From Eledone cirrhosa (Eukaryota): 64,000 nucleotides of DNA. This document shows, one piece after another, positions 7,898 through 58,256 of the stretch. The position numbers and the translations under genes are program-made. The stretch spans positions 54,002,001 to 54,066,000 of the forward strand of contig OZ024742.1 of the NCBI GenBank assembly GCA_964016885.1, in the 5' to 3' direction. Position 1 is the stretch's first letter, and each line of letters opens with the position of its first letter. Below the pieces are notes generated by a model. That model had not been told where the DNA came from and did no database searches. It was given only the letters and a program-made list of their open reading frames with translations.

Positions 7898-7962
<65 letters not shown>

Positions 7963-8079
7963 AGTTGAGCCAACATATGAAGCATCATTTACAAATGAGA
8001 CTAATCACCTCATTTACACTGACGAGAAAACTATATATTCTCGACTGTTTTCAAGTTTTCAAGTCCAAGTGTGGGAGGC

Positions 8080-8122
8080 ATCGTCCTGATGAGGACCATT
8101 TAAGTCCGAAATGATAGACGAT
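8080..8122 (+). ncRNA. Minimal type I hammerhead ribozyme
   Basis: ATCGTC-CTGATGA-GGAC-CATTTAA-GTCC-GAAA-TGA-TA-GACGAT; perfect stems I and II; stem III one base short of the palindrome TCGA. Confidence 0.7.
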
Positions 8123-8269
8123 TGGCCCCCTTCCTTCGGCTGGACACCAGATGTTTTTTGCATAGCTACGGCTTTCTATATGTTTACCTGTAAACATACC
8201 GTGTTTCTTTAGAAATACGAAATTTCTATACATATCTGTATACAGCTGTGCCTGAAGGTAAATCCTAAT

Positions 8270-8459: not shown

Positions 8460-11400
8460 TATTACATGATTATGTAAACTGATGAAGATGTAGCGTGTAC
8501 CATTGCAGTGCCCGTTTAGAGCATCCAGATTTTTCAGAAGCATGATGCAACTGCCTTTCTTCAGTTTAAGTATGTGTGTTGGGAAGCCTGATGGGGTAAG
8601 TTTGTTGATGAACACAATTTGATATTACAGTTCATTATCTACTGTATCAGAGCCTCTGTAGATTATTTCATGACCAGGGAACTTGTTTAACATGAACTCA
8701 TTCACCAATCTTGCTGCCTCATTTGTTGGAGTGATAATGGCTCTATTTGCAAGCCAAAGTGGGTTGTGTAGTTTCCTGGAAGATTTGTAAACACAAAATC
8801 ACACAGTCCAGACACATTACCATATTCCAGACAAAGTTCATTTCGCAGAAGAATTGTGTATGCACCTACAGTTGGAACAGTTGGAATGTTACCATTTCCC
8901 ACATCAAGAAGGTAGTTTGCAAACTGTCTTTCATCAGAGTCCTCTGAATTAATTAACCGTTGATTTGTTGTCTTCTCCATGGTTTCCACATAATCCCAGA
9001 GATAGGATCTCTTGATGGTTGCCTCAACTATTTGTGGTCTAGCACCATGACGTACAACTGGAAGAATTTGCTTCCAGTCACCAGATAGTAATACTGTTAG
9101 ACCACCATATGGCTTTTTGCAATCTCGAACATCTTTGAAGCTCCTGTCAAGGCATTCAAAGATATGCTTATGTCCCATCCATACCTATCTCATCAATGAT
9201 TAGCAGATCAACTTACTGCATAAGTTTACCTGTTTCATCCCTCTTTGTGAAGAAGCAAGTTGATTCAGCAGTCACATTGAGCGGAATCTTTCACTTAAAA
9301 TGAAGAATTCAACCTTTGTGAAACAAAGTGGCTGCTATTCCAGATATGGCAGTGGCAAGTGCAATTCTTTTTTTAGATCGGCGGTAATCCAATAGGATGC
9401 TTATGACATAGGTATTTCCTGTACCTGCACTTGCATTCAAGCAGAAAATTCTGCCTACATTTTCATTTACAGACGTGATTACTTTGTGAAAAATAACCAG
9501 TTGCTCAGGATTCAATGTTGGCAGAAGTTCATTTATGTTTGCTTGCAGTTGGTGTGTATTGAAATCAGTTTCTGTCATACGAACCCTGTTGATTTCTGGT
9601 ATGGCAACAATAGTTGGGTCTGACCGAGGAAGTCCATAGTTGGCATGAATGTCCAAGCCATCATGTTGAAGTCTTTGTTGGATCTTCTGTAGAACAATCT
9701 GCACGGTTTGCATGTACATGACTTGCTCATGACGTTCATGCATGATATCCTCTGCAAGACAATTCTTCCATTTCTCCCAGAACTGCGAAGGGTCATTTGG
9801 CATCCAGTACAATAAAATGGCACAGAAGATCTCTCGCAACTGAGGACCAAGTGTAATGGATGAGGCCTCTTCCATAGCTTTGTCTTTTTCTCCATCTTCA
9901 TCTAACAGACCAAGTTTCCTGCATGCTTCTTGGAATGTTGGAAATTGAACTCCTTCAATTGTCCACAAATCTTTGTATGAAGTTGACCCAGCCTTGTGAT
10001 GTAGGATCATTCTGAGTTAATATAATTCAGATTGATGTCTACTGAGAGGTACTGTTGGAATGCGCCCAAGAGATTCACTTTTAAATTGCTGATCACCATC
10101 CAGATGTCCCTTTTTTCATCTTTGCACCTTTTTGTTTGTCCAAGTGAAATATTTAGGAATATCAATATACAACATGTTTTGTGCCAGTGGGTCTTGAATA
10201 TTCAGTTGAAAATATTCCGTCAACTAGTCATTGGCTGTCCCCTAGAAACAATACTTTCTTTCTGCCCTCGCTCATATACGACCATAAATGGCAAGGCAAC
10301 TTTTCAACTGGCGGTTTACGTTGATGTAATGGAAATTTATAGATTCTCCAGAATGCTTCACTGGCTGAGATGTACCGTGCATTGATATAGGTCTCAATCT
10401 CATTTTGGGCATGGACACAATTTCCTTGATCATCCCAATAGTGAAAGGATCTTGTCTGATCCTTTCGTGATGTACTTATATAAGTACTTAACAGCCTTGA
10501 CACTGTGGAAAATCTCACAATTGATGTGGCACTGATATCTCAATGAGAGGAAAGGGTTGTATGGAACAATCCAACGATTATAAACAGTAAATTCTTGACC
10601 TTTATGTTGGATTGTATGGGTGTGACCACTATGATCTCTATCCCTTCTTCTATACTCCGGAAAGGAATTTTCTGAAACAAATGTGGTTTGTCCGAATGCC
10701 TTGGGATAACTTTTTGAGCAATGGCGTTGTTGTCCTAGCCCTTTCATACATGAGCACATCATATTAGCTTGTCCACATGGACCATGAATGTTGGATGCAG
10801 GATGTGATGATCTTATGCAGAATTGGATTGGTCTCTTTATCAGAAATCTCACAGCACACTACCTGATCAATGGCATCAGCAGTTTTGGTTTTGCTATCTT
10901 CAGCCATTATAAACAGAATATGAGCATGCGTGGGGCCTCGCTTCTGCCACTCTATTGTAGCAGAATGAGCCACAACTTTTCCTAGGACATTTTCTGTCAA
11001 TATGTCATCCACGAAGCTGTCATACTTGATCTTGAAGACTCTTGCACAAATATCAGGACGGTCTCTAGGTTCTTCACTAGGATGCAAACTATTTTTTATT
11101 TCATCCCAGTTAGGGTTAGTTGTTACCATGATCAAATAAGATCGCTTTCCCATGTGTCGAACCACAGCCATCGAATCCTGAAAGCAGTCACTGTAGAAGC
11201 GAGGGGAACAATAGATTGAAGGAGGAAGAACAATTCTCCGGCCTGCATTTACTGAATTTCCTTCAGCCACAGCATCATACAAACCCTTATACTTTTCAGC
11301 TCGTATCATGGTTTGATTGTTGCGGGCCCATTTGAAGCGACAATGTTCTATTTTTGCCTGGGCATCTACAGCATATTGCTGCATCAGCCGCCTGCTCTTC

Positions 11401-12490
11401 ATGATAATGTTACTGTCACCTTGCCTAACCTGAAACCGATAACAGTAGAAATCAGTGGGTGTGAGTGTGTGGTTGTTGTCAGTCCTTTTCAAACCAACCT
11501 GAAACCCATTATTCCCCCAAGTAAACAGTAGCACATAATGCAGAGGATCATAAGAATGGTGCAACTGATGAACCCTCTGAAGACCACCATCTCGTTTATG
11601 AATGATTACATCCAAATGACATAATGTTGTATCAGGTTGAATAACAGCAATCTCAGATGCCATGGGGAGATTATATGTGCGACAATGAAAATCAGTGGGT
11701 TTTACTTTGTCAGCATGTATGACAGTATTCACATTTTCAGAGACTGGCATTTCAATGACTGACTTGAAGCTTCTTATATGGGTGTTGGAGTAGTGCAAGT
11801 CTTCTTGCAGGTCCTGCAGGACAGCAGCATCTAAATTAGCATGATGCAAGAGATTCTGAAGCTCATGATCTGTATCATAGAAGTAGAGCTGCACAAAACT
11901 GGGTGAAGCATCACTTGGAAGTAGTGATCCAATAATATGACAAATCTTACCTTGGATCTTAAATGTGGGACTAAATCCTGGTGCTTTAATCTGTTTGCAA
12001 CCAATTTAAACTAAGGCAAGCACATTGTTATATGCCCGTATCTTATGGAGAAAAGAATTTCCTGCTTGAGTGATATCGAAATAGTTCAGTATATTTGGTG
12101 GAGGAGGAGGAAGTTAGGGGAGTTTCACTTTTCCCTGGAAGCAGCACAGAAATTTGGGTTTATGTGGCCAGTGATAAGCTTTGCAGTGCGGACAAACAGA
12201 GGCAAAGAGACTTCCTGCATTATGTTGTGGCATTATGGAAAGAACAGTTTGCTCTTGGAAAGGTTCATCTGTAGGATTCTTTGCCAGACCTTCAATTGAC
12301 CTGTTCCTTCCTCTCTGAACGTTTGGTGTATTTGTTGTAAGTTGTGTTAACTGAATTACATTTCTAAAAGTGTGTTGGAATGTTGTAAAGCGATTATTGT
12401 TTGATTGATTTGTCCTCATCTCTCTTTGTCGATGTGAATCTGCTGCTATGCGTTGGAATTTAGATGAGAAATGTTTTCTGCGTCCCATGT
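8460..12490 (-). pseudogene. Helitron RepHel (HUH Rep + PIF1-like helicase), frameshifted and 3'-truncated
   Basis: Rep motifs TIEWQKRGPTHAHIL and KYLYKYITKG; helicase motifs ASAGTGNT, GGLTVLLSGDWKQILPVV, PSGFPTHILKLKKGSCIMLLKNL..CNGTR. Split over ORFs 12114-12488, 10764-11894, 10430-10852, 10228-10518, 9309-10010, 8702-9178 and 8433-8615. Confidence 0.92.
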
Positions 12491-12732
12491 TCAGTTTCTG
12501 TCATGTATGTATAAATATATATTATCTCTACGGTGAAATCTTAGAAATAAATATATGTTAAATCAAAAAAATAAATATAAATATAAATATATCTATATCT
12601 ATATATATATATATATATAAGTTGAAAAAAATGAAAACGAAATTTCATTTCTCACTCTTAGTATGGCACTTACTTAAATGTAAGTATGTATGTATACGTA
12701 CATACATATATGTATACAGACGTACAGTAGTA

Positions 12733-12822
<90 letters not shown>

Positions 12823-13002
12823 TATACATACACATACACATATGCATACAGGTACACATACATATATGCACGCATCAGTTTAGCCGACGTTTATTATAAC
12901 GCGTGCTTTGTTCGTTTGTTTGTCAACAAATCGAACAGCCTGAATTTATGCCATACAGTGTTAAGGCAACCACGTCACCTTTTTGTTCAACACTGACACA
13001 GG

Positions 13003-13047
13003 AACGATGTACTAGTTTCAAGCTTGTTAGCTATCATCAGCACCGTT
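13003..13047 (-). ncRNA. Minimal type I hammerhead, array A unit 1
   Basis: AACGGTG-CTGATGA-T-AGCT-AACA-AGCT-T-GAAA-CTAG-TA-CATCGTT; predicted cut between 13010 and 13009. Confidence 0.85.
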
Positions 13048-13093
13048 TACCCATCTGCCAGATAGTTGAACGTTCGAAAGTATATACTTTCCT

Positions 13094-13129
13094 TATGAAA
13101 ATTAACGGCTGAGCAGCCTAATTTGCATA
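13094..13129. promoter_or_regulatory. Octamer-containing hairpin (ATTTGCAT at 13121-13128; also 13674, 14201, 14746)
   Basis: TATGAAAATTA-AC-GGCTG-AG-CAGCC-TAATTTGCATA; the octamer is a perfect consensus and is conserved in array B. Function is inferred. Confidence 0.45.
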
Positions 13130-13281
13130 TTGAGTGAGTTAAATCGGTCAGGCATACCGAGAACGATAAGTTGAAAAAAATGAAAACGAAATTTCATTTC
13201 TCACTCTTAGTATGGCACTTACTTAAATGTAAGTATGTATGTATACGTACATACATATATGTATACAGACGTACAGTAGCA

Positions 13282-13375
<94 letters not shown>

Positions 13376-13555
13376 TATACATACACATACACATATGCAT
13401 ACAGGTACACATACATATATGCACGCATCAGTTTAGCCGACGTTTATTATAACGCGTGCTTTGTTCGTTTGTTTGTCAACAAATCGAACAGCCTGAATTT
13501 ATGCCATACAGTGTTAAGGCAACCACGTCACCTTTTTGTTCAACACTGACACAGG

Positions 13556-13600
13556 AACGATGTACTAGTTTCAAGCTTGTTAGCTATCATCAGCACCGTT
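13556..13600 (-). ncRNA. Minimal type I hammerhead, array A unit 2
   Basis: Identical to 13003-13047. Confidence 0.85.
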
Positions 13601-13834
13601 TACCCATCTGCCAGATAGTTGAACGTTCGAAAGTATATACTTTCCTTATGAAAATTAACGGCTGAGCAGCCTAATTTGCATATTGAGTGAGTTAAATCGG
13701 TCAGGCATACCGAGAACGATAAGTTGAAAAAAATGAAAACGAAATTTCATTTCTCACTCTTAGTATGGCACTTACTTAAATGTAAGTATGTATGTATACG
13801 TACATACATATATGTATACAGACGTACAGTAGCA

Positions 13835-13902
<68 letters not shown>

Positions 13903-14082
13903 TATACATACACATACACATATGCATACAGGTACACATACATATATGCACGCATCAGTTTAGCCGACGTTTATTATAACGCGTGCTTTGTTCGTTTGTT
14001 TGTCAACAAATCGAACAGCCTGAATTTATGCCATACAGTGTTAAGGCAACCACGTCACCTTTTTGTTCAACACTGACACAGG

Positions 14083-14127
14083 AACGATGTACTAGTTTCA
14101 AGCTTGTTAGCTATCATCAGCACCGTT
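14083..14127 (-). ncRNA. Minimal type I hammerhead, array A unit 3
   Basis: Identical to 13003-13047. Confidence 0.85.
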
Positions 14128-14361
14128 TACCCATCTGCCAGATAGTTGAACGTTCGAAAGTATATACTTTCCTTATGAAAACTAACGGCTGAGCAGCCTA
14201 ATTTGCATATTGAGTGAGTTAAATCGGTCAGGCATACCGAGAACGATAAGTTGAAAAAAATGAAAACGAAATTTCATTTCTCACTCTTAGTATGGCACTT
14301 ACTTAAATGTAAGTATGTATGTATACGTACATACATATATGTATACAGACGTACAGTAGCA

Positions 14362-14447
<86 letters not shown>

Positions 14448-14627
14448 TATACATACACATACACATATGCATACAGGTACACATACATATATGCACGCAT
14501 CAGTTTAGCCGACGTTTATTATAACGCGTGCTTTGTTCGTTTGTTTGTCAACAAATCGAACAGCCTGAATTTATGTCATACAGTGTTAAGGCAACCACGT
14601 CACCTTTTTGTTCAACACTGACACAGG

Positions 14628-14672
14628 AACGATGTACTAGTTTCAAGCTTGTTAGCTATCATCAGCACCGTT
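14628..14672 (-). ncRNA. Minimal type I hammerhead, array A unit 4
   Basis: Identical to 13003-13047. Confidence 0.85.
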
Positions 14673-14818
14673 TACCCATCTGCCAGATAGTTGAACGTTC
14701 GAAAGTATATACTTTCCTTATGAAAATTAACGGCTGAGCAGCCTAATTTGCATATTGAGTGAGTTAAATCGGTCAGGCATACCGAGAACGATAAGTTGAG
14801 AAAAATGAAAACAAAATT

Positions 14819-14884
<66 letters not shown>

Positions 14885-20535: not shown

Positions 20536-21945
<1,410 letters not shown>

Positions 21946-23449
21946 TGTTATATATATATATATATATATAATATATATTTTAGACGCAAACACACACCCG
22001 CATCCACCCTCCCCCACATATATATATGTGTGTATGTATGTAGTGTAATTATTACATACGTAGGTATGTATGTGTATACCAAACGTTGACAGGTCGATAT
22101 ATGCGTTACATAATATGTGAATATATCGCAGTTGTTTTATTTCATATATATTTTCTATGTTGAAAATAAAACATTCATTAGTTACTTTTTCTTTCATAGA
22201 TATAATATTTTATGGAAATATACGAATAAGATATTCAATAGCCTTTTTATCTTTTCTTTCTAAAGAAGTGAACGCATGAATAATATTTCTATTTTATTTT
22301 ACTGCAGTTTCTGAATCAATTAGATGTTTTTCAACGTATTTTAACTAGCAATAATCGATGAATGTGTACCTAACATCTTTATGGTTTGAAATATTTTTCT
22401 GAGTATTTTGACATTCTTCATTAAAACAACTACTGCGGAAGTGGTGAGTAAGTTTGCAAAGATCGCAAAATATAGAAAATATTTTCTTGTTATATTTCAA
22501 TTCAATATAAATTTGATTATGTTATATTGAAATACTAAGAAAAACGATTTTTATAAAACCTGTTTTATACGCCATCTATTTCTTAGAAACGTGTTAAAGG
22601 GTCGAATTGAGAAGACAATATCGCCCATGCACAAGTGAATTTAACATGTTATATTGTTTACTTCTTAAGACATGATACTTGCTAACGTATTGAAGTCCAT
22701 ATCGTTATATTTACACGTACACATATCAGAAAATAGACACATAGTGGGAGAGTGAGAGAAGCACACACAAGAAAAAGGGGAACACACAGGCATAAGCATG
22801 ATCTCACCTCTGTCGTATGACAGAAGCCTGAGCTGGCGATCACAACAAAGCGGACTGAAAGATTGTCCCGTAATCTTAAGCTTTACCAGTATTTGTAAAA
22901 TAAACAAATAATTTTAATGAGTGTTAAACGAATTGTACATTAGCTTAAAAGTAACTGATCAAAAGTTGATTGCTTTACTATGAAAAATTGTCGAACAGGT
23001 TGGGCATGTAAGTGTGATGAAAAATAAATCCTATAGAACAACCGACATTGTGGAGCAAGTGGTTGGACCAAGATGGTACTTGTAAACTCTTACCAAATAC
23101 AGACATTGCACCAACAGAAATGAAAGGCGAATATCTTGTGGCTTGCAGCCTGATTAATCCACTACAGTTTACTGAATCCTCGCAAACAATCACAACAGGA
23201 AATCGATGAACTGCGTAAAGAGTTATTCTTTCTATCTTCAGCATTGATCAATTGAAAAGGGCCAATTGTTAGACCTCGACTACACATTACACAACTGAAC
23301 AACTGAAACTGCAGAAGCTGGAACAGAACAATTTATGCCAAGAAACTCTGTCTTATCCAACATACTTACCGTTTCTAACTCCATTTTGAAATTAATGCTT
23401 GAAAACATGTACATTATGTTTTTAAAAAATCTGATATATAAGCAATAAT

Positions 23450-33570: not shown

Positions 33571-34025
33571 ATACATACACAAGAACAATAACAACAAGCA
33601 CATAAACACACACTAGTCACCCATCACACAGCAAACAAAACACTATACACACACACAAACGCATGCGCAAAAAAGACAAAATAAAATAAACAAACAAGCA
33701 AATAAATAAATAAATATATAGACAGACTGAATAAAACTGGCGTAGACATACAATACAACAGGAGGAAAAGATAGCACCACTGACGATATTGCAGATGTGC
33801 AACGAAAGATTTATGATAAACTATATATATGTGTTTGTGTCTATATTGTATCTGTATTATTTTTGACCGTCGGTCAGTCAATGGCAACATTGAGGACCGA
33901 GTAAGTTAGATTACCGATATAAAAGACACAGAAGCGAGAAGCGAAAACCAACCAAACAGTGAGTGTGTTCTGTTATTAATTCTGGCAATATTACACAAAT
34001 ATGACCCTCCCCAAGTGTAACAATA
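32883..34025 (+). mobile_element. Second copy of the Neptune-type PLE 3' fragment (HHR-like core at 33776-33817)
   Basis: Highly similar to the reverse complement of 20643-21820, with small deletions and frameshifts. Confidence 0.88.
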
Positions 34026-36319: not shown

Positions 36320-36386
<67 letters not shown>

Positions 36387-36431
36387 TAAACAAATAATGA
36401 ACAAACAATTCCTTATATTAAACAAAAAAAG

Positions 36432-36586
36432 TTCATTATTTAACGATCGTTTCTAGGATATATATGTGTTATAATTGGTATGCATATTCAACAGATCTAT
36501 GTACAAAATTATACAAAATTATACAAATTATCAAGATTAAATATACATACCAAACACATATATACGCCGTCTTCAGAAATAATGAA
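36432..36586 (-). ncRNA. Long-stem-II hammerhead (mirror of 47166-47320)
   Basis: Reverse complement of 47166-47320. Confidence 0.8.
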
Positions 36587-37404
36587 GTATATTTATTGAT
36601 AATAACAACAATTCAAAATTTCAGTTCAAAATTGACCAATGAAAACACAAAGGGTTAAATGCAGTTCGGTGTGTGTATATACATGTAAAACCCTTACACA
36701 TATTTTACAAAAATGTATGTATAATTTGTATACGCATACTAAAAGGATGGATGCAAATACGAAATTTCAAGGTTAATGTCTCTGTGAGCTTACAATGCGC
36801 AGATAAGATACTTATGAAATCAAGTATATAAATATATTTTTTCATACTCACACATATCAGTACAATCACACATACACGCGCGTATATGCATAAATATACA
36901 CATAACCACGAACATACAAACACACACACACCCCCACTCACATTTATATATGTGGATATAAAATCATAAGCACATGGATATTAATTCACTCACATAAAAC
37001 ACTGGCACACACATTTCTAGATCAAGATACAGAAATTAGGTGGGAGGGGGGGGAGGGGTCAGTATTCAACTGTCTGAGCAAACTGTCTAATATAAATGTA
37101 TCTATAAATTAAGAAAAAAAAAAAATAAAACAATAAAATATAATAAATATAATATAATATACATACACATACAGATATATACACATACATACATGTACTC
37201 ACACATAGAAATATTTACGCATACACACATACACACATACATATACAGTCATACACACACATACACTTACACGAACATACACATACACATATATAAAGAT
37301 ATATATATATACACACACACACACACACGCAACACATACACACATACACATATATATAAAAATAAATAATAAAGATATATACCTATATATATATACACAC
37401 ACAC

Positions 37405-37447
<43 letters not shown>

Positions 37448-37840
37448 CACACACATACATCTAAATATACATACACATACATACACACATACATGTACAT
37501 ACATGTACATACATATACGCACATCGATATACATATATATATATATACATATATATATATACACACACATAGACATGTAGATACATACACACATAACTTA
37601 CATACACACATATATATATACATGTATATTCATACATAGAATTAGATATATAATCATACATACTTATGCACTTACTTATATTCATATATACAAATACATA
37701 CGCATCTATATATGCATATATATATAAAAAAAACTACAACCTCACCTAACTCAGACATACAAATAAAAATAATAATAAAAAGGCATATGTATATACATAC
37801 ACACGCATTAATAGAGATATATATATAGAGACACATACAT

Positions 37841-37910
<70 letters not shown>

Positions 37911-37913
37911 ACT

Positions 37914-37955
<42 letters not shown>

Positions 37956-38023
37956 GATATCCACACACTCATACCACCATAAATACACATACAAACACCC
38001 ACATATATATATATATACACACG

Positions 38024-38057
<34 letters not shown>

Positions 38058-38179
38058 TAAAAAACAGACATGCACATATATATATACACATTAACTACAT
38101 TTATATATACACATATTATATACACGTACACAACCTCACTTATACATACATACACATAAGTTATATTATAATAATAAAG

Positions 38180-38234
<55 letters not shown>

Positions 38235-38330
38235 CATATACATACATACATACATACACATACATACATATAAACATATACATACATAAATACACATATA
38301 CTAATAAAGACATATATTCACACATAGACA

Positions 38331-38390
<60 letters not shown>

Positions 38391-39519
38391 CATATATACA
38401 CACACACATATACACAGACACATATACACTCTCACATATATATATGTGTGTGTGCGCACACACACATATGTACACACACACACACAAATACACATAAACA
38501 CATACATATGCATACATGCACACACACACACACATATATCACATAGATACGAAGATAAACATATAAATAGAGAGACATACATATATATACAACACACATA
38601 CACACACATACATACACACGCATATACATATACATATATATATACATATATATATTCCTATATATACATGCATACACATATATACACATATATACACATA
38701 CATACACATATACGTACACACATTCACATACACATACATATATAATGCATATATACACATATATACATACATATACACACTCTTATATACACACGCAATC
38801 TTACATTCATATTTGCATGCGCATATATGTATTTTTATATTTAGATATAAATACCCAAACCTATATAGACACCTACCTACATATATATTCATACATAGAC
38901 GCTTACAAATACAGATGATAATAGTATGGGGGAAAGGGGGGGTTTGGAGAAGGGGATCAAAGTAAATATATGTTTCAAGAAACATAGAAAATTTTCCGTA
39001 TTTTTATCCAATGTATGTTCTTACATATTTTCAGTGTTAGGAAATACGACAAACAAGAACCCAGGCAAAATCTATGCATCTCAAAATAAATAAGTATATC
39101 ATTAATCATATGTTAACTAAACCAAAGATAGTCAACATATTGATTTCTAAGGTGTAAATTAGTTAGGTTTATAATATTTGAAGCAGAATTTTGAAGTCAA
39201 ACAGTAGTAGATTATTAATTACAGTATAACTAAATTAAAGTTAATAACGTTATGGTATCAATATTAGGAAATGAATTTAGTGATAGGGAAAAAAATAAAA
39301 TAAAGTATTACATCGGTAGTAGAATATAAATTATATGTTAACTAAATTAAAAATTATATACTTATTTCAATAGTATATGTTAATTAGGTATACAATACAT
39401 AAAGCAGATACTGTATTTCATCAATAGCATAATATAATTATATGCAAATAGAAATCAAAACTAATACGCATACATATACATATACATACACATACACATA
39501 TACATACATATACACACAC

Positions 39520-39568
<49 letters not shown>

Positions 39569-40098
39569 TACATACATACACATACACATACACACACACA
39601 CATACACATACACATATACATATACATATCTTTTTCAAAAAAATTGCATAGAATATATTAACTAGGTATATATCCAAAACGCATCCCATTCTATGATTAC
39701 ATGACATTCTGTAATTCGTCTGTATAAGGATACTAATTTTAAGCAAATTAAAATTAAAATTAAAATTTTTAGGTTGATTAAAACTAAAACCAAATAATAA
39801 ATATATTTCTAAAATGTATATTAATTAGGTCTATAATACTAAAAATTATTTCTCTGTCATTGGATACACGATATTATTTTGTTATATTTTATCTGTAAAA
39901 GAGTTATAATAAAAGGTTTAAATAAATTAAAATTAATCTATAAATTAAATTACTAAGTATATATTAGTAATATTTAAAGGTTTTTCACAATTTATGATTA
40001 CATAATATTTTATATTCTCATCTGTAATAAAATATTAATTAAATTAAATTTATAGGTTAACTAACATTTAAATTAAATTAATTTCTAAAATAATGTTA

Positions 40099-42168
40099 TT
40101 AATTAGGTTTATAATATTTAAATGTTTTTTTTAGTTTATGATTACACGATATAATTAATTCCTGTCGTTTATTTAATAAGATATCCTTAGACTTCATTAT
40201 TTCAAATAGTTCTTGGGAACATAATCTACATTCATTTCTATTATTTTGATAAGGGGTGGCTCTTTTGAGCACACTCCAGGTCAAATCATATTTTATATTC
40301 TTATTTTTATAACTATTGATTTTTTCTGCTAGAGATGTTGTATTAGCCAGTGCTGCATTTTTAAAACTATGCTTGTGGGTATTAAACCTTGTCTTAAAAT
40401 TGTTAGAGGTAGCTCCTATATATGAGCAAATAGAATCTTTAGTTTTAACATTACATTTATAGACTATGTTGTTAACAAGACAATTCCCTTTTAATGGGCA
40501 GTTTGCTTTGTTTCTACAGTTACATCCTTTCGTTAATTCTGTATTTGAGGAGATATTATGGTTAATTTGATGTACTGGTGGTATACTTATGGTTTTCTTA
40601 CATTTATATGCATTATATGCACTTATATTTTGTTTTATGTTATTTGTTGTAGAGTATGAGAATTTAACTGTAGACCTATTTAAGATTTGATGGTATTTGT
40701 GGTTTGGCGGGAAGTTTTTCTCAAGGATATAAAAAAATTTTTTAGCAATATTATCCTTAACTTGTAAATTAAAAGGAGCATTATACCAAGTAACCCGTCT
40801 ATTACGGTTTCTATGTTGTTTATTATTTTTATTATTTTTATAGGTTGTATCATGATTTTTACTAGGAGGATTAATGTTAATGATCTCACCACAACTATTT
40901 TTAGTTATATTTGTAGATTTAGGTGTTTTATCTTTTTTATTAGGAGTTTTATTATTAATATTTATTATAGTTGTATGATGAGTAGTTTTTTGAGAGTTAT
41001 TATACTTTATATTAGAAGATTTAGTATTTTGGGGTATAGTGTGGGTGGCATTTAGGTGTGTACTTTTCATTTGGTGTTTGTTGGTAATATTATGTTGTAT
41101 GCTTTCAGTATTTTTAGTAGAAGGTATATACTCTAATCTATTTTTGTGGCCACTTCTATCTAGAGCTTCGTTATAGAAGGTCGCATTTTTATCAAATACA
41201 TCTTGGTTAGAAGAAAGGTTAGAAATTCTAAGTGATATATTATATGCAAGGTTTTTAAGGATAGATTTAGGGTGATTAGATTGTGAGTGTATGTAATGTA
41301 AGTTTTGGTTAGGTTTATGGTAAGGTTGGTAGATACCCGTAGCTAAATCTAAAGTTATATCTAGGAAATTTACTACTTTACTTGTTTTTTCAAAAGTAAT
41401 ATTAAGATTATAATAGTCTTTAAGGAAAGTTCTAATATGTTTTTTGTTTTTTTCGATTTCTGAAAGGCTAAGGTTGTTAGAAAGAAGAAGACAGTCATCA
41501 CGATATAAACCACCTTTGAGGTGGGGAAAAGAGGCATTTATGTTGAAAAGGAGAAAGAGGCCCACAAGATCAGTAATTTGGGCGGAATCGCTTGAACCCA
41601 TAGTAATATCAAAAAGATTACTGTATGTGTTTCTGGTCCAGTATTCATTCTGAAATTCAATAAGTGTTAGTCTAGCATGTGTAATAATGTTAATGTCATC
41701 CAAAGTTAAGTTAGATCTATTTTTAGCAAAAATCAATGCTTTGTTCAGGAGTATAGGTGATATAGAAGAATAGTAATTATCTATATCAAATTGTAGGAAA
41801 GAAGCAGAAGATTTACACCTAATATTTTTAAACCAGTTAATTACCTGGGAGGTGTTTTCCCAGAGTGGTAAAATAACGTGTTTTCTTATTTGTGGGATGA
41901 CTCTATCTAAAATTTTTTTGCTAATTATTCCAATATCTGATTTGGAGGGACATATAAGTCTAATAGAAGGATTTGAGTTAAAGTTAGATTTGTGATCTTT
42001 CAGGTTGAAGTGTGGTCTTTTCAATGCCAAAGGTTCAGTTCTATCTTCAATGTTTAGTTTTTTTACTATGTTGTGTGTTTTGTTGTTGATGTTGGTGAGT
42101 GACACATTATTAGATTTTTTATAATTTTTTCTGAGTTCTTTATATATGAACTCGTTATAATGTTCAAT
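40099..42168 (-). CDS. Penelope-like (Naiad-type) reverse transcriptase + C-terminal GIY-YIG endonuclease; open frame, 5'-truncated at the inversion junction
   Basis: FLQFDIDNYYSSI, FDITMGSSDSAQITDLVG, GLYRDD, VNFLDITL, SNHP, CNCRNKANCPLKGNC, IVYKC..SYIGAT..RFNTH, CRLC..N..CNH. The frame stays open upstream of the called GTG at 42105 (IEHYNEFIYKELRKNYKKS) up to the junction. Confidence 0.92.
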   Translation of the reverse strand: MEHYNEFIYKELRKNYKKSNNVSLTNINNKTHNIVKKLNIEDRTEPLALKRPHFNLKDHKSNFNSNPSIRLICPSKSDIGIISKKILDRVIPQIRKHVILPLWENTSQVINWFKNIRCKSSASFLQFDIDNYYSSISPILLNKALIFAKNRSNLTLDDINIITHARLTLIEFQNEYWTRNTYSNLFDITMGSSDSAQITDLVGLFLLFNINASFPHLKGGLYRDDCLLLSNNLSLSEIEKNKKHIRTFLKDYYNLNITFEKTSKVVNFLDITLDLATGIYQPYHKPNQNLHYIHSQSNHPKSILKNLAYNISLRISNLSSNQDVFDKNATFYNEALDRSGHKNRLEYIPSTKNTESIQHNITNKHQMKSTHLNATHTIPQNTKSSNIKYNNSQKTTHHTTIININNKTPNKKDKTPKSTNITKNSCGEIININPPSKNHDTTYKNNKNNKQHRNRNRRVTWYNAPFNLQVKDNIAKKFFYILEKNFPPNHKYHQILNRSTVKFSYSTTNNIKQNISAYNAYKCKKTISIPPVHQINHNISSNTELTKGCNCRNKANCPLKGNCLVNNIVYKCNVKTKDSICSYIGATSNNFKTRFNTHKHSFKNAALANTTSLAEKINSYKNKNIKYDLTWSVLKRATPYQNNRNECRLCSQELFEIMKSKDILLNKRQELIISCNHKLKKTFKYYKPN

Positions 42169-42191
42169 ATTCCGCCCAAATTACTGATCTT

Positions 42192-43658
42192 GTGGGCCTC
42201 TTTCTCCTTTTCAACATAAATGCCTCTTTTCCCCACCTCAAAGGTGGTTTATATCGTGATGACTGTCTTCTTCTTTCTAACAACCTTAGCCTTTCAGAAA
42301 TCGAAAAAAACAAAAAACATATTAGAACTTTCCTTAAAGACTATTATAATCTTAATATTACTTTTGAAAAAACAAGTAAAGTAGTAAATTTCCTAGATAT
42401 AACTTTAGATTTAGCTACGGGTATCTACCAACCTTACCATAAACCTAACCAAAACTTACATTACATACACTCACAATCTAATCACCCTAAATCTATCCTT
42501 AAAAACCTTGCATATAATATATCACTTAGAATTTCTAACCTTTCTTCTAACCAAGATGTATTTGATAAAAATGCGACCTTCTATAACGAAGCTCTAGATA
42601 GAAGTGGCCACAAAAATAGATTAGAGTATATACCTTCTACTAAAAATACTGAAAGCATACAACATAATATTACCAACAAACACCAAATGAAAAGTACACA
42701 CCTAAATGCCACCCACACTATACCCCAAAATACTAAATCTTCTAATATAAAGTATAATAACTCTCAAAAAACTACTCATCATACAACTATAATAAATATT
42801 AATAATAAAACTCCTAATAAAAAAGATAAAACACCTAAATCTACAAATATAACTAAAAATAGTTGTGGTGAGATCATTAACATTAATCCTCCTAGTAAAA
42901 ATCATGATACAACCTATAAAAATAATAAAAATAATAAACAACATAGAAACCGTAATAGACGGGTTACTTGGTATAATGCTCCTTTTAATTTACAAGTTAA
43001 GGATAATATTGCTAAAAAATTTTTTTATATCCTTGAGAAAAACTTCCCGCCAAACCACAAATACCATCAAATCTTAAATAGGTCTACAGTTAAATTCTCA
43101 TACTCTACAACAAATAACATAAAACAAAATATAAGTGCATATAATGCATATAAATGTAAGAAAACCATAAGTATACCACCAGTACATCAAATTAACCATA
43201 ATATCTCCTCAAATACAGAATTAACGAAAGGATGTAACTGTAGAAACAAAGCAAACTGCCCATTAAAAGGGAATTGTCTTGTTAACAACATAGTCTATAA
43301 ATGTAATGTTAAAACTAAAGATTCTATTTGCTCATATATAGGAGCTACCTCTAACAATTTTAAGACAAGGTTTAATACCCACAAGCATAGTTTTAAAAAT
43401 GCAGCACTGGCTAATACAACATCTCTAGCAGAAAAAATCAATAGTTATAAAAATAAGAATATAAAATATGATTTGACCTGGAGTGTGCTCAAAAGAGCCA
43501 CCCCTTATCAAAATAATAGAAATGAATGTAGATTATGTTCCCAAGAACTATTTGAAATAATGAAGTCTAAGGATATCTTATTAAATAAACGACAGGAATT
43601 AATTATATCGTGTAATCATAAACTAAAAAAAACATTTAAATATTATAAACCTAATTAA
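42192..43658 (+). CDS. Inverted duplicate of the same ORF, truncated within RT motif B
   Basis: After its called start codon, the 488-aa translation is identical to the C-terminal part of the 668-aa ORF. Confidence 0.88.
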   Translation: MGLFLLFNINASFPHLKGGLYRDDCLLLSNNLSLSEIEKNKKHIRTFLKDYYNLNITFEKTSKVVNFLDITLDLATGIYQPYHKPNQNLHYIHSQSNHPKSILKNLAYNISLRISNLSSNQDVFDKNATFYNEALDRSGHKNRLEYIPSTKNTESIQHNITNKHQMKSTHLNATHTIPQNTKSSNIKYNNSQKTTHHTTIININNKTPNKKDKTPKSTNITKNSCGEIININPPSKNHDTTYKNNKNNKQHRNRNRRVTWYNAPFNLQVKDNIAKKFFYILEKNFPPNHKYHQILNRSTVKFSYSTTNNIKQNISAYNAYKCKKTISIPPVHQINHNISSNTELTKGCNCRNKANCPLKGNCLVNNIVYKCNVKTKDSICSYIGATSNNFKTRFNTHKHSFKNAALANTTSLAEKINSYKNKNIKYDLTWSVLKRATPYQNNRNECRLCSQELFEIMKSKDILLNKRQELIISCNHKLKKTFKYYKPN

Positions 43659-44188
43659 TAACATTATTTTAGAAATTAATTTAATTTAAATGTTAGTTAA
43701 CCTATAAATTTAATTTAATTAATATTTTATTACAGATGAGAATATAAAATATTATGTAATCATAAATTGTGAAAAACCTTTAAATATTACTAATATATAC
43801 TTAGTAATTTAATTTATAGATTAATTTTAATTTATTTAAACCTTTTATTATAACTCTTTTACAGATAAAATATAACAAAATAATATCGTGTATCCAATGA
43901 CAGAGAAATAATTTTTAGTATTATAGACCTAATTAATATACATTTTAGAAATATATTTATTATTTGGTTTTAGTTTTAATCAACCTAAAAATTTTAATTT
44001 TAATTTTAATTTGCTTAAAATTAGTATCCTTATACAGACGAATTACAGAATGTCATGTAATCATAGAATGGGATGCGTTTTGGATATATACCTAGTTAAT
44101 ATATTCTATGCAATTTTTTTGAAAAAGATATGTATATGTATATGTGTATGTGTATGTGTGTGTGTGTATGTGTATGTGTATGTATGTA

Positions 44189-44237
<49 letters not shown>

Positions 44238-45366
44238 GTGTGTGTATATGTATGTATATGTGTATGTGTATGTATATGTATATGTATGCGTATTAGTTTT
44301 GATTTCTATTTGCATATAATTATATTATGCTATTGATGAAATACAGTATCTGCTTTATGTATTGTATACCTAATTAACATATACTATTGAAATAAGTATA
44401 TAATTTTTAATTTAGTTAACATATAATTTATATTCTACTACCGATGTAATACTTTATTTTATTTTTTTCCCTATCACTAAATTCATTTCCTAATATTGAT
44501 ACCATAACGTTATTAACTTTAATTTAGTTATACTGTAATTAATAATCTACTACTGTTTGACTTCAAAATTCTGCTTCAAATATTATAAACCTAACTAATT
44601 TACACCTTAGAAATCAATATGTTGACTATCTTTGGTTTAGTTAACATATGATTAATGATATACTTATTTATTTTGAGATGCATAGATTTTGCCTGGGTTC
44701 TTGTTTGTCGTATTTCCTAACACTGAAAATATGTAAGAACATACATTGGATAAAAATACGGAAAATTTTCTATGTTTCTTGAAACATATATTTACTTTGA
44801 TCCCCTTCTCCAAACCCCCCCTTTCCCCCATACTATTATCATCTGTATTTGTAAGCGTCTATGTATGAATATATATGTAGGTAGGTGTCTATATAGGTTT
44901 GGGTATTTATATCTAAATATAAAAATACATATATGCGCATGCAAATATGAATGTAAGATTGCGTGTGTATATAAGAGTGTGTATATGTATGTATATATGT
45001 GTATATATGCATTATATATGTATGTGTATGTGAATGTGTGTACGTATATGTGTATGTATGTGTATATATGTGTATATATGTGTATGCATGTATATATAGG
45101 AATATATATATGTATATATATATGTATATGTATATGCGTGTGTATGTATGTGTGTGTATGTGTGTTGTATATATATGTATGTCTCTCTATTTATATGTTT
45201 ATCTTCGTATCTATGTGATATATGTGTGTGTGTGTGTGCATGTATGCATATGTATGTGTTTATGTGTATTTGTGTGTGTGTGTGTACATATGTGTGTGTG
45301 CGCACACACACATATATATATGTGAGTGTGTATATGTGTCTGTGTATATGTGTGTGTGTATATATG

Positions 45367-45420
<54 letters not shown>

Positions 45421-45516
45421 TGTCTATGTGTGAATATATGTCTTTATTAGTATATGTGTATTTATGTATGTATATGTTTATATGTATGTATGTGTATGTA
45501 TGTATGTATGTATATG

Positions 45517-45569
<53 letters not shown>

Positions 45570-45691
45570 CTTTATTATTATAATATAACTTATGTGTATG
45601 TATGTATAAGTGAGGTTGTGTACGTGTATATAATATGTGTATATATAAATGTAGTTAATGTGTATATATATATGTGCATGTCTGTTTTTTA

Positions 45692-45725
<34 letters not shown>

Positions 45726-45793
45726 CGTGTGTATATATATATATATGTGGGTGTTTGTATGTGTATTTATGGTGGTATGAGTGTGTGGATATC

Positions 45794-45835
<42 letters not shown>

Positions 45836-45838
45836 AGT

Positions 45839-45910
<72 letters not shown>

Positions 45911-46303
45911 ATGTATGTGTCTCTATATATATATCTCTATTAATACGTGTGTATGTATATACATATGCCTTTTTATTATTATTTTTATTTGTATGTCTGA
46001 GTTAGGTGAGGTTGTAGTTTTTTTTATATATATATGCATATATAGATGCGTATGTATTTGTATATATGAGTATAAGTAAGTGCATAAGTATGTATGATTA
46101 TATATCTAATTCTATGTATGAATATACATGTATATATATATGTGTGTATGTAAGTTATGTGTGTATGTATCTACATGTCTATGTGTGTGTATATATATAT
46201 ATGTATATATATATATATGTATATCGATGTGCGTATATGTATGTACATGTATGTACATGTATGTGTGTATGTATGTGTATGTATATTTAGATGTATGTGT
46301 GTG

Positions 46304-46346
<43 letters not shown>

Positions 46347-47165
46347 GTGTGTGTGTATATATATATAGGTATATATCTTTATTATTTATTTTTATATATA
46401 TGTGTATGTGTGTATGTGTTGCGTGTGTGTGTGTGTGTGTATATATATATATCTTTATATATGTGTATGTGTATGTTCGTGTAAGTGTATGTGTGTGTAT
46501 GACTGTATATGTATGTGTGTATGTGTGTATGCGTAAATATTTCTATGTGTGAGTACATGTATGTATGTGTATATATCTGTATGTGTATGTATATTATATT
46601 ATATTTATTATATTTTATTGTTTTATTTTTTTATTTTTCTTAATTTATAGATACATTTATATTAGACAGTTTGCTCAGACAGTTGAATACTGACCCCTCC
46701 CCCCCCTCCCACCTAATTTCTGTATCTTGATCTAGAAATGTGTGTGCCAGTGTTTTATGTGAGTGAATTAATATCCATGTGCTTATGATTTTATATCCAC
46801 ATATATAAATGTGAGTGGGGGTGTGTGTGTGTTTGTATGTTCGTGGTTATGTGTATATTTATGCATATACGCGCGTGTATGTGTGATTGTACTGATATGT
46901 GTGAGTATGAAAAAATATATTTATATACTTGATTTCATAAGTATCTTATCTGCGCATTGTAAGCTCACAGAGACATTAACCTTGAAATTTCGTATTTGCA
47001 TCCATCCTTTTAGTATGCGTATACAAATTATACATACATTTTTGTAAAATATGTGTAAGGGTTTTACATGTATATACACACACCGAACTGCATTTAACCC
47101 TTTGTGTTTTCATTGGTCAATTTTGAACTGAAATTTTGAATTGTTGTTATTATCAATAAATATAC

Positions 47166-47320
47166 TTCATTATTTCTGAAGACGGCGTATATATGTGTTT
47201 GGTATGTATATTTAATCTTGATAATTTGTATAATTTTGTATAATTTTGTACATAGATCTGTTGAATATGCATACCAATTATAACACATATATATCCTAGA
47301 AACGATCGTTAAATAATGAA
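47166..47320 (+). ncRNA. Type I hammerhead with ~116-nt stem II in the pLTR of the Naiad element
   Basis: TTCATTATTT-CTGAAGA-[..TATATATGTGTT-TGGTATGTATATT...AATATGCATACCA..AACACATATATA..]-GAAA-CGATCG-TT-AAATAATGAA; perfect 10-bp stem I and palindromic stem III. Confidence 0.82.
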
Positions 47321-48206
47321 CTTTTTTTGTTTAATATAAGGAATTGTTTGTTCATTATTTGTTTAATATTTTATCTTGACTCTGTATACCGTTTATCTTT
47401 CACCGAAAGTCGTTTTTCATTACATCTCTTCTTTCCATGATATCCGGAATACATTGAGTTCTTCATACGGATTGGACACTACCGTAAACTCTTGGTAGAT
47501 TTATCTACATATATATATATATATATAAAAATGAATAGAAGGTTGGCCGAATGTGTGCGTGCGCGCATGTGTATGTATATATGTGTACGTTTGATTTTGA
47601 CATGCTTACCCAATTGATACAGAACAGTCAGAAGGCTCGTGGCAGCATGTATCAACAAGTGTGTGTGACTGGGTCCATGGGAGAGGGGGAGAGAGGGTTT
47701 GTGAGTATATATACTGCAATGTATGTATGTGGCGGTGTGGGTGTCTGTGCATGTAGACGTATGAGTGTGAGTGCATAGATAGGTGTATGTCTGAGTATAT
47801 ATATGTGTGTGTTACTATGTGATTATGTTAGTATGTGTGGGTGCTTACTCTGAAGTGTGAGCAGACGTGTGAGGTACTGAACCCAGCATGACTCCATTGA
47901 AATATGTCGGACGGAAAATAGTTGATGAACCGTGTGGCAGCAGGAACTGACCAGAACTTGTTATGACGTGAAGTAAAAACAGCCAATGGCATGACAAGAG
48001 TGGAAAGAAGGTATTTTGAGGGGTTGATTTTATAACACCCCAGTGATAAAATTTGCTCCGGACATAACAGACGTGTCTGAAAGAACCCACAGAAGTAGAA
48101 TCATCCAGATCCATACAAGGACCATGACTCGAACTACATGCCGGCGAATCATTTGTACCACGAAATAAACTAAGCCCAGATGCATCACTGATTTTTCGTT
48201 TTCTTG

Positions 48207-54765: not shown

Positions 54766-56749
54766 CTATTATTATAATGAAAAATATTTTTGGTCCCCAT
54801 TCATAAAGATGTATCGATTTACCAAGGACACATTATTGTACATATTTTTGGTATAAATATTTTAAGAAATAAGATAATCCTTATTGGTATAATTACAACT
54901 GAACGTTGGCTTCACAATCTTAATTATTCATGGATCGCTTTTACAGAAAAACCGTACTGTTAGTGATCAATAACTAGTAGACTTGCATTCCATTAACTAA
55001 AAATTCTAAAGGTCAAATCATTTCATAAGCGACTGTTATATACTTTCTTACTATTCTAGTCGCATAATTTCGTATGTTATGAATATTTAAAGACGTGTGT
55101 TCATTCATTTCAGTCTTGGTATATTTTCTCTAAACATTCAATTGAAGGGTAAACCACTTGACATCAAAGATGAGAATACAGACATTTTCGCACAATCTTC
55201 GTGTTTATATTTTACGCTGGACATACCACAGACGCAGTAATTACACGTCTACAAATCTAAAAAAGTGCATTATTTCATCTTCTCTCCTCCATTAATGTTT
55301 GCAAATCTACTTATGTTTCGCGTTTCAATAAATTTACTAGATTGTAATTGTTTAAGAGTAGATTTACCGAAAATATTTCTGATAGATTGTACGCTTTTCA
55401 CTAAATCCCGAAAATCAACGCAAAGAAAGAAAACATCTAAAATTTATTCTTTTTAGATGGATGATAATATTACAACCACTGGAATAAGAAAAAGTATATA
55501 TATAAATTTGTAATAAAAAGTGAATTGCATATTTCTAGTCTGTGGCATACGTGTCATGTTTTGACATAGTAAAGTCAAATACTACCTTGTAAAAGTAAAT
55601 AAATTGACGTGGAGAAGTAATGGAAATAAACAATACTATAAATATTGAAAGAATAAGTGAGGGGCCCACATACTTCATTGCAACAATGGATACTTTCTCA
55701 ATGCATTCTATGCTAGATGTTCTATTAGATAATAACTAGAATGTTTTTTCTTCCATACATTTTTTTTTTCCTGCGTTATATTTTCATGTTGTCAAACGGT
55801 AATTTCTGGTTTGTTTCCAATCTCTTGTATTGCAGAACGACGCCATTATCGTATTGTATGTATTTCATTTTTCTAATTTTACATTTTTCGTACATGTCTC
55901 ACAAAAAATATATCACAATTGAAAAACGTTACTGAAATATTCATTGAAAAACTGACCTAAATAATAAACAAGAAACAAAAAATTCCATATATATATTAAC
56001 ATGTCAGTGGGAAATTATACAAATTATCTACGACAAAATATATTTGAAGCAATCATTAAATTAAATATAGAGTAAAATAAAATATCTCATTTCTGAATAA
56101 TACGTGTCAGTCAAATATATGTTGCACAATACACGGAAAGAAATTATATATTAAATATATATTTGATGTATGACAAATTTTATAGAAAAACATATACGAT
56201 TCGTTTCCGTTGTCTTTTAATATATGAACTCAATGAAATATTCTGGAATTTACATTTGAAATTTGCTATATTGCAATTGAAAACTCGTTATATTGAGTTT
56301 CAAGGATCTTAAGTAGTATGTTCATGCCACCAATGTCAAATACTCTGATTAATAAAAAGCTCGGTGGTTTTATAGGGAAAATTCAAAGACCGACCGACGG
56401 TTTGTTATATTCTTACTTATTATATTAGTACTGAGTTTGCTTTACTCGGTGGCACATATCGTAACCAATTTGGGTATGGAAGCACCTAAACTTTTCATAA
56501 CAAATTTGGGTAAGGTGTTTGTGGAAGACCACCAATCGTCCATGCATACCAGTCATCTTTCTCCATGCCACTGATCTTGTCCTAGGGAAAGGCAAAGACC
56601 TATGTATCTATGCGAGGGAGGAAAGCCCTGGACGAGTGCCTTCCATCCTCACATTGATACCATAAACTATTCAACAGGCACACGGTGAAGTTATCATTCT
56701 CTACCATGCCCAACCTTGCAGAGATCATTGCCTCTCTCAATGATGTCCA

Positions 56750-57060
56750 GAGGAATTTGTCTATGTGGGTTCCACAAGTACCGAGTTCAAATCAGGCTTC
56801 CACAACCAGATGTGCTCCTTTAGCAAGAGGTCCAACACTAGTCTAGCCGAGTGCATGTGGAGTCTCAAGGGCGAGAACCGGAACTTCAAATTGAGGTGGA
56901 AAATTCTCCATTTTGCGGGCCCTCGGAGGCTGGACTGCTAGGTTTGTAGGCTCTGTATCCGTGAGAGTGTGGGGACCCTCAAGCTACTTGGGTGGTCGAT
57001 GAAATCTAGGTCCGAAAATTTAAGTAATTGTATATATCGAAGGACCCATATGTTCGCCCA
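56750..57060 (+). pseudogene. Naiad-type GIY-YIG C-terminal fragment (GC-richer subfamily)
   Basis: FVYVGSTSTEFKSGFHNQMCSF..TSLAECMWSLK..LRWKIL..*VCRLCIRE..RSENLSNCIYR. Confidence 0.75.
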
Positions 57061-57194
57061 TATCGCAGGTGGGCGCACCGCGAGGGGCTGCTATCTTTTG
57101 TTTATAACACTTTATTCTTATAAAACTCGGGGTAAGTGCATCCGTTGAATTCTAGCCCCGTGTTTGGTCATTCGATATGTTTGTTTGTATTTTT

Positions 57195-58251
57195 GTACTC
57201 ACGCTCTATGCAAATTAGTAGTGGGCAGACTAATTTGCATAGAGCGTGAGTACGTACCGGTTCAACGGAGACGATAAAAACAAATAACGAAACGAAATTA
57301 AATTTCGTTTCGTTTGTAACTCACTTTTGTATGACTGACGCTTAAACAATTAAGTTAAAAATGTACATCCACATATGTATACTGAAATACTAGTATGCAT
57401 ATGAATACACACACGTATACATATGTAGATGTACCGAGTTTTTCACTGGTCACTTTACTGTGAGTGTCCAGCTATTCTGTATGTAAACACACAGACAAAC
57501 CGGTTTTTAGAGTCATACTGGTTTTTGAGGAAACACCTTTCCTCTATTCTGCAGAAAGCCAGACAAGGAACATTGAACTAGTTTCGATGTTGTTACATCT
57601 CATCAGCAATATTTACCTATCTTCCGGCCTCTCTAGAGAATCGTAAAAGCACATATCGTTATATGCTTTTTCTATGAAAATTAGTAGTGGGCAGACTAAT
57701 TTGCATAGAGCGTGAGTACGTACCGGTTCAACGGAGACGATAAAAACAAATAACGAAACGAAATTAAATTTCGTTTCGTTTGTAACTCACTTTTGTATGA
57801 CTGACGCTTAAACAATTAAGTTAAAAATGTACATCCACATATGTATACTGAAATACTAGTATGCATATGAATACACACACGTATACATATGTAGATGTAC
57901 CGAGTTTTTCACTGGTCACTTTACTGTGAGTGTCCAGCTATTCTGTATGTAAACACACAGACAAACCGGTTTTTAGAGTCATACTGGTTTTTGAGGAAAC
58001 ACCTTTCCTCTATTCTCTAGAAAGCCAGACAAGGAACTGGCTTTCTGGAGAATAGAGGAAAGGTGTTTCCTCAAAAACCAGTATGACTCTAAAAACCGGT
58101 TTGTCTGTGTGTTTACATACAGAATAGCTGGACACTCACAGTAAAGTGACCAGTGAAAAACTCGGTACATCTACATATGTATACGTGTGTGTATTCATAT
58201 GCATACTAGTATTTCAGTATACATATGTGGATGTACATTTTTAACTTAATT

Positions 58252-58256
<5 letters not shown>
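57195..58256 (-). repeat. Tandem repeat, 466-bp period (~1.8 units), with fold-backs at both ends (candidate retrozyme, family B)
   Basis: 57212-57677 repeats at 57678-58037; 57809-58028 is inverted as 58037-58256; 57195-57219 mirrors 57229-57253. Octamer at 57233 and 57699. Confidence 0.9.
57569..57613 (-). ncRNA. Minimal type I hammerhead, array B
   Basis: AATATTG-CTGATGA-GATGT-AACA-ACATC-GAAA-CTAG-TT-CAATGTT; predicted cut between 57576 and 57575. Confidence 0.87.

Follow-up and report, generated by a model that had tools for sequence, protein, structure and literature searches.

Positions 57195..58256 of the window (the whole 64-kb stretch of Eledone cirrhosa DNA analysed) hold a family-B insertion with its RNA sense on the minus strand, made up of a 26-nt snap-back arm (57195..57220, plus strand), 1.78 forward units and a 220-nt inverted arm (58037..58256, plus strand), and followed directly by (TA)n from 58257. 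The feature is real: the observation behind the original prediction was confirmed, and every letter quoted for the locus was found in place, although what had been called an array is this composite rather than a real array, with 1.78 units yet one hammerhead only. The snap-back arm, a copy made on the hairpin of the promoter-like motif described below, gives the insertion an atypical left end. The inverted arm is 100% complementary to 57809-58028, and the forward arm ends 4 nt before the predicted cleavage site. One clean 466-nt monomer is present (57212..57677, minus strand), predicted to form a branched, highly self-paired RNA. Within 57195-58256 no open reading frame of at least 100 aa is listed, including none for the reverse transcriptase (RT) and GIY-YIG endonuclease of autonomous Penelope-like elements, and G+C content across 56001-58000 is 0.38, within the range (<45%) of retrozymes.

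A type I hammerhead ribozyme is predicted at 57567..57617 on the minus strand from its core, stems and covariation. It comprises stem I (57607-57613/57569-57575; AATATTG/CAATGTT, with a GG/CC extension past a UAA bulge), the core CTGATGA (57600-57606), stem II (57595-57599/57586-57590; GATGT/ACATC, loop AACA) and stem III (AC-TA-GT), all within this interval and strand, with the cut predicted at a GUU triplet between 57576 and 57575. Because stem III is minimal and palindromic, a form said to need dimers (PMC4209133), the hammerhead probably acts as a dimer. The core occurs in a single polarity at this locus. Stems I and II and loop II are thus present as originally described; the CAATGTT arm stands in the assembly but is a minority allele, a public run having T at 57571 in ~99% of its depth (CAATATT), and loop II and the core do vary across the genome, where AATA and CTGACGA also occur. 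Family A carries the cleavage triplet GUA, and family B carries GUU in 355 and GUC in 61 of 417 counted cores (redundant loci included). GUU is a weak triplet, and its presence in most B copies counts against a retrozyme. Rfam gave no match anywhere in the 64-kb window at gathering thresholds; on the hammerhead strand of a B locus, Hammerhead_HH9 reached 36.5 bits (E 5e-6), below its gathering threshold of 52. Hammerhead-like cores of other repeats lie at 3890, 26907, 27913 and 48407, the 3890 type recurring in the flanks of several examined loci.

The pattern CTGAYGA-N5-AACA-N5-GAAACTAG has 22,255 matches in the 3.0 Gb of genome searched, versus 0 for a control pattern. The units are short, dispersed and tandem as well as abundant, with a type I hammerhead motif (core, stems, covariation) in each full unit, as in retrozymes. 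Since the B loci examined are the best-scoring matches of this search, they are skewed to young copies. Monomers of the examined loci cluster as B variants and as A, A2 and A3 types of ~416-477 nt (with AT runs shortened), and one B-type array runs to 31 tandem hammerheads followed by an inverted arm (G000:C1:5738328-5752442). Also in the window are a family-A array of four hammerheads (12617..14819, minus strand), its left end at site S1 (below) in (TA)n, and a degenerate copy (7960..8200, plus strand) of family C, a third hammerhead repeat sharing the promoter-like motif. A Helitron remnant (8700-12500; Helitron_like_N, E 5e-47) adjoins array A on its left. Families A and B are alignable end to end; with the hammerhead removed, their global score is 155 versus -46 +/- 15 in 500 dinucleotide shuffles (maximum 3; z 13.7), with 282 identities in 379 aligned columns, and the two flanking parts are each significant separately (z 4.7 and 9.0). 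Similarity beyond the ribozyme therefore exceeds that of shuffled sequence, the comparison on which the original prediction had staked itself, and the two subfamilies of one non-coding element that it proposed are borne out, being in fact several.

Covariation was assessed in 23 aligned hammerhead segments; some loci had been chosen for a mutation in stem II, and their segments with that mutation were excluded. Double changes occur at 6 of 16 pairs and 92% of cells are paired (33-47% in slid controls). Double-change cells number 47 versus 18.4 +/- 3.0 in shuffles (0/500 as high), a count that includes relatedness and corresponds to ~7 independent events, and pair-level covariation measures were no higher than in shuffles (194 and 400 of 500). 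Against covariation stand the U.U mismatches at the stem II base in 13 of the 23 sequences, all A-type, and at the end of stem I in 12. Within B itself a stem II swap (57587 and 57598) is polymorphic, at about half the depth of run X1. Compensatory changes extend to two helices beyond the ribozyme: GUGAG/CUCAC becomes GUGGG/CCCAC in 10/139 monomers, and UAUGAC/GUCAUA, UAUGGC/GCCAUA and UACGGC/GCCGUA alternate in the second. The proposal of a ribozyme maintained by covariation thus stands, and selection on RNA structure is supported outside it as well. Part of the conservation first put down to RNA structure, that of CTAATTTGCATA, looks instead like that of a DNA motif, since no covarying helix is evident there. 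The quoted motifs are all present but do not belong to one strand, the hammerhead lying on the minus strand and the others having been read from the plus, antisense to the ribozyme.

As a linear monomer, 57212..57677 is predicted to fold at -154 kcal/mol (z -8.7; opposite strand z -6.2). Predicted circular folds follow one branched plan common to A, A2 and B, with z of -6.4 to -9.5 on the hammerhead strand versus -2.8 to -6.3 on the opposite strand, and the hammerhead strand folds more strongly in 5/5 monomers. By prediction, then, the monomer is highly self-paired, as retrozyme monomers are.

Upstream of the hammerhead on the minus strand lie a proximal-element-like motif, CTATGCAAATTAG (57696..57708; second copy 57230-57242), identical to a host U6 promoter element, and a TATA-like box (57658..57666) 40 nt downstream of it; the motif is also the 5' arm of a hairpin with 57672-57684. 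By analogy to U6, a start site is inferred near 57635, ~18 nt upstream of the hammerhead. Newt satellite 2 prompted the comparison of the unit with host snRNA promoters. TATGCAAATTAG and the TATA box match five host U6, U6atac and MRP promoters, which share (Y)TATG(C/G)(A/T)AAT(T/G)AG at -77 to -79 and GTATA at -31. The five genes of the matrix (three types of U6 promoter seen among the 10 top loci, the best of 8 U6atac loci, and the only MRP locus) were chosen after inspection; ten further U6 and seven further U6atac matches were left out, lack the motif-plus-TATA arrangement and look like retrocopies. A U1/U2-type promoter as in newt was rejected, as the motif is absent upstream of 6 U2, 9 U1 and 1 RNase P loci (0/16), which carry a TCAGT-type element at -56 to -66 instead.

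Some features of the host promoters emerged alongside. The RNase P RNA gene (L288) has upstream a U1/U2-type element, AAATCAGT, and a distal TTACCTCCC rather than the U6-type motif, which suggests Pol II-class transcription of RNase P RNA in the animal examined. U1, U2 and U6 genes (L157, L158, L276-L286, L125-L128) have in common a distal TTAC(C/T)TCCCTT, or a sequence close to it, around -255 to -290, and their proximal elements share an AAATNAG core at differing distances from the TATA-like box.

In B and A the TATA box follows the motif by 40-41 nt on the hammerhead strand. With a motif-to-TATA spacing of 38-50 nt allowed, the promoter matrix scores 26.5 in B and 26.9 in A (0/200 shuffles as high), and the A2 match was equalled in 1/200; restricted to 44-48 nt, A2 does no better than shuffles (101/200). 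The genome was also searched for the motif followed by a TATA box, at spacings that leave out standard A and regardless of any hammerhead; this gave 880 matches versus 8 for a control. Seven of the 30 matches listed are A variants; of the other 23, 21 were examined, and in 14 of these a hammerhead core follows at a distance of 99-109 nt. The motif alone thus recovered two further hammerhead families, C (core at +99/100 in 12/16 loci) and D (+109 in 2/5). Family D (L195, L198, L200, L204, L208) is older and diverged, with a T-tract soon after the hammerhead in L204 and L208, and is the best candidate for a true Pol III unit.

The motif might instead be an RNA hairpin arm or a generic POU-factor site in a retrozyme transcribed by read-through, as a 2020 review assumes for retrozymes (PMC7761336). 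This reading, which concerns the promoter step only, is credible, if not the one we prefer. It gains from the second arm that pairs with the motif in families A, B and C (an A2 copy shows one double change) and from departures from a standard U6 promoter: of the elements of a type 3 (U6-like) Pol III promoter, the proximal element and TATA box are present, and the gene-like spacing and distal element are not. The motif-TATA spacing is 40-42 nt in A, A2, B and C versus 45-47 in the five host genes (a shortfall of 4-7 nt in A, A2 and B and 3-5 in C); the distal TTAC(C/T)TCCC found near -265 in host snRNA genes occurs in 0/8 monomers; and T5-T7 tracts inside the unit, on the RNA strand of 7/8 monomers, would be expected to stop Pol III. 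Against a mere hairpin arm or POU site, the TATGCA of the 5' arm is invariant in 23/23 sequences while the partner arm is mismatched in 18/23, family C keeps motif and TATA although it is near background versus A and B once the motifs are removed (z 0.4-2.3), and family D has a gene-like spacing of 46. We lean towards a working promoter in the unit, leaving the polymerase aside.

The ends of the insertions were compared in 34 B loci and the window, which gave a table of 26 inverted insertions; in 22 of them the outer ends could be seen on both sides. B insertions consist of two inverted arms within (TA)n, with two fixed outer ends ~70 nt apart: one S1 (unit position 66-68) and one S2 (135-143) in 20/22, S2 with another end in the remaining 2, and two alike ends in 0/22. 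In the window, S1 is at 57274 (unit position 66) and S2 at 57343-57351 (positions 135-143), enclosing a tail (57274..57351, plus strand); the inverted arm has S2 as its outer end, and the snap-back arm does not end at S1. Loose ends to (TA)n in run X1, at 57273-57275 and 57343, agree with both sites. The tail contains the AAACGAAATT hairpin, CTCACT and GTATG and is repeated at 57740-57817, so that the GATAA, AAACGAAATT and CTCACT..GTATG originally listed as conserved fall at S1 and in the tail, and GTGAGT pairs with the tail's CTCAC. Insertions of A and A2 use homologous sites (70-79 and 125-133), with one of each in 19 (read by eye, 43 regions). On the plus strand each outer end is a 5' end, which fits that strand being cDNA and the hammerhead strand RNA.

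Inner arm ends are compatible with a uniform distribution overall (KS p 0.5, n=52), and inversion exactly at the cleavage site was rejected as a rule on this basis; 8/52 fall 1-17 nt inside the predicted cut versus 1.9 expected, in an interval chosen post hoc. Pol III termination is disfavoured as the cause of the fixed ends: S1 lies ~8 nt past the T7 tract in A, and S2 is kept in B variants without the T5 tract.

An identical insertion plan, with ends ~80 nt apart, is found in P1, an RT and GIY-YIG family of the same genome. P1 (L246-L275) is a young Penelope-like family with at least 1,265 candidate copies that are ~99% identical; its 3' ends fall at two fixed sites, and a canonical hammerhead core was not found in its 3' region. 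It has only a ~19-nt stretch in common with A2 (the A2 TATA region), and its tail is without evident homology to the S1-S2 tail. Terminal homology to an autonomous partner was found neither in P1 nor among the elements of the window. Hammerheads with a longer stem II were rejected as partners, being old dispersed families without the motif-plus-TATA arrangement, as were Penelope ORF pieces beside arrays, which look like shared (TA)n targeting or nesting. The window itself holds a ~5-kb inverted duplication (36378-47374) around a Penelope-like 693-aa open frame (40099-42180, minus strand), with RT- and GIY-YIG-like motifs by eye, no Pfam match and no hammerhead core matched there. A second Penelope-like family (20871-21979) has an endonuclease-end frame (21293-21979, minus strand) and a hammerhead-like core ~400 nt downstream, with related cores also at 33780 and 52451.

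Penelope-like elements have pseudo-LTRs (pLTRs), an inverted 5' copy, a tail and microsatellite targets (PMC8557442). Like those described in that source, the insertions here combine tandem and inverted copies, a tail at one end, (TA)n targets and a hammerhead in the repeat, the features of a non-autonomous Penelope-like element; they differ in having no open reading frame, arms of many units and a tail of ~55-75 rather than 30-40 nt. For the Penelope PAc in vitro, both strands of AT-rich DNA are described as being cut, after which reverse transcription begins at two internal sites that delimit the tail (PMC11167929); the two sites resemble those of the retrozyme here.

Units differ by 2.7 changes within an insertion versus 15.7 between insertions (19 insertions with at least 2 full units), and all units are identical in 6/19. 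The two arms of an insertion tend to carry the same variants, with 0.5 differences in 60 comparisons between arms at 6 loci (49 of them from one locus). In three long arrays (L033, L036, L047) every unit is different, which counts against copying of one monomer. The homogeneity within insertions fits rolling-circle copying of one monomer, and homogeneous linear multimers fit too. The 466-nt back-going joints in contig runs X4 and X6 are explained equally well by collapsed tandem DNA and do not enter the evidence.

Homogeneity within arrays is also predicted by local amplification, that is, by an orphan Penelope pLTR that turned satellite through one insertion per locus and subsequent unequal crossing-over, a course put forward in a preprint (bioRxiv 10.64898/2026.07.22.740005), whose demonstration of pLTR-retrozyme kinship in Xenopus points the same way. 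We consider this improbable, as both arms are often multi-unit with fixed S1 and S2 ends and a common variant, and no ORF-bearing element with a B-type terminal repeat was found in the loci examined. Some arrays may have been lengthened by local expansion. Viroid-like RNA replicons copy RNA to RNA and often bear ribozymes in both polarities. That the unit is such a replicon, its genomic arrays occasional by-products, is very improbable: it is small, highly self-paired and ribozyme-bearing, and RNA-to-RNA replication has been raised as a possibility for retrozymes (PMC7761336), but the core at the family-B locus has one polarity only, the RNA is predicted to fold into a branched form, less strongly so on the opposite strand, and an RNA-only cycle is not needed to account for ~22,000 genomic cores that bear a retrotransposon signature.

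Judged from its sequence features, the unit is very probably a non-LTR retrozyme, without coding capacity and present in many copies. Its insertion into (TA)n is likely the work of the RT and endonuclease of a Penelope-like element, and its transcription likely starts from the U6-type motif carried in each unit. Of the long-lived RNA replicon originally proposed, the related subfamilies under structural selection remain; the replicon label does not, given the (TA)n target, fixed ends and inverted arms. It is best read as a non-LTR retrozyme, a variant within an already known type of non-autonomous retroelement, and not as an RNA-only replicon.

Metazoan non-LTR retrozymes are, likewise, short non-coding tandem units with a type I hammerhead each, a self-paired fold, several families per genome and co-occurring Penelope-like elements (PMC7229834; bioRxiv 10.64898/2026.07.22.740005). 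The 466-nt unit exceeds the 170-400 nt given in the first of these sources and lies inside the 51-972 bp of the second. Axolotl has two retrozyme hammerhead families, one of which, HHR_Amex2, resembles family A in its U.U at the helix II base, and mussel also has two (PMC7229834). Neither main text includes cephalopods, which their supplements may list, and the text available from both describes neither two fixed ends nor inverted arms; literature searches judged by title and abstract returned nothing relevant on cephalopod hammerhead repeats. Metazoan retrozymes seem promoterless, and Penelope-like elements are named only as likely helpers, in what PMC7761336 offers on them. Internal promoters are known from hammerhead satellites, snRNA-type Pol II in newt satellite 2 and Pol III in schistosome (cited in PMC2220036); these are hammerhead tandem repeats like the present ones, whose candidate promoter motif differs in matching the host U6/U6atac/MRP class, not U1/U2, and in recurring in four families. 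Nothing relevant on a U6-type promoter in retrozymes was found in the literature searched, a scope outside which subscription papers and Repbase lie. The strict two-site insertion ends and the recurring U6-class motif upstream of the hammerhead go beyond the published descriptions found.

A possible life cycle would begin with transcription from ~18 nt upstream of the hammerhead, a start that the motif makes somewhat likely; the transcript would have to cross the promoter of the next unit for the promoter to be propagated. The predicted hammerhead, probably as a dimer, would cut multimers to monomers, which would be ligated into circles. Both target strands would be nicked in (TA)n, one priming at S1 and the other at S2, ~70 nt apart on the RNA; the end rule itself is observed, and two-site priming is the mechanism we infer behind it. 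Reverse transcription would then probably follow the RNA round a circle, or along the length of a multimer, so that each arm comes to hold tandem units; the two arms, as seen in the insertions, are joined head to head at variable points. More tentatively, these could be self-promoting retrozymes, in which several circle families captured the host's U6-class promoter and a Penelope dimer lays down both arms from two structured priming sites on one RNA by rolling-circle RT; a circular or tandem template would let the captured promoter survive retrotransposition.

These ends and this motif address the question of how animal retrozymes are transcribed and mobilised. A recent preprint argues for retrozyme-Penelope kinship without a mechanism (bioRxiv 10.64898/2026.07.22.740005); here, in a genome with thousands of young copies, the ends show the Penelope two-site signature directly, and the strict one-of-each rule constrains how the RT dimer works. 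As a by-product, an outline of the host's U6-class and U1/U2-class promoter elements was obtained. The candidate built-in U6-class promoter, found in four families, would let these elements bring along their own promoter.
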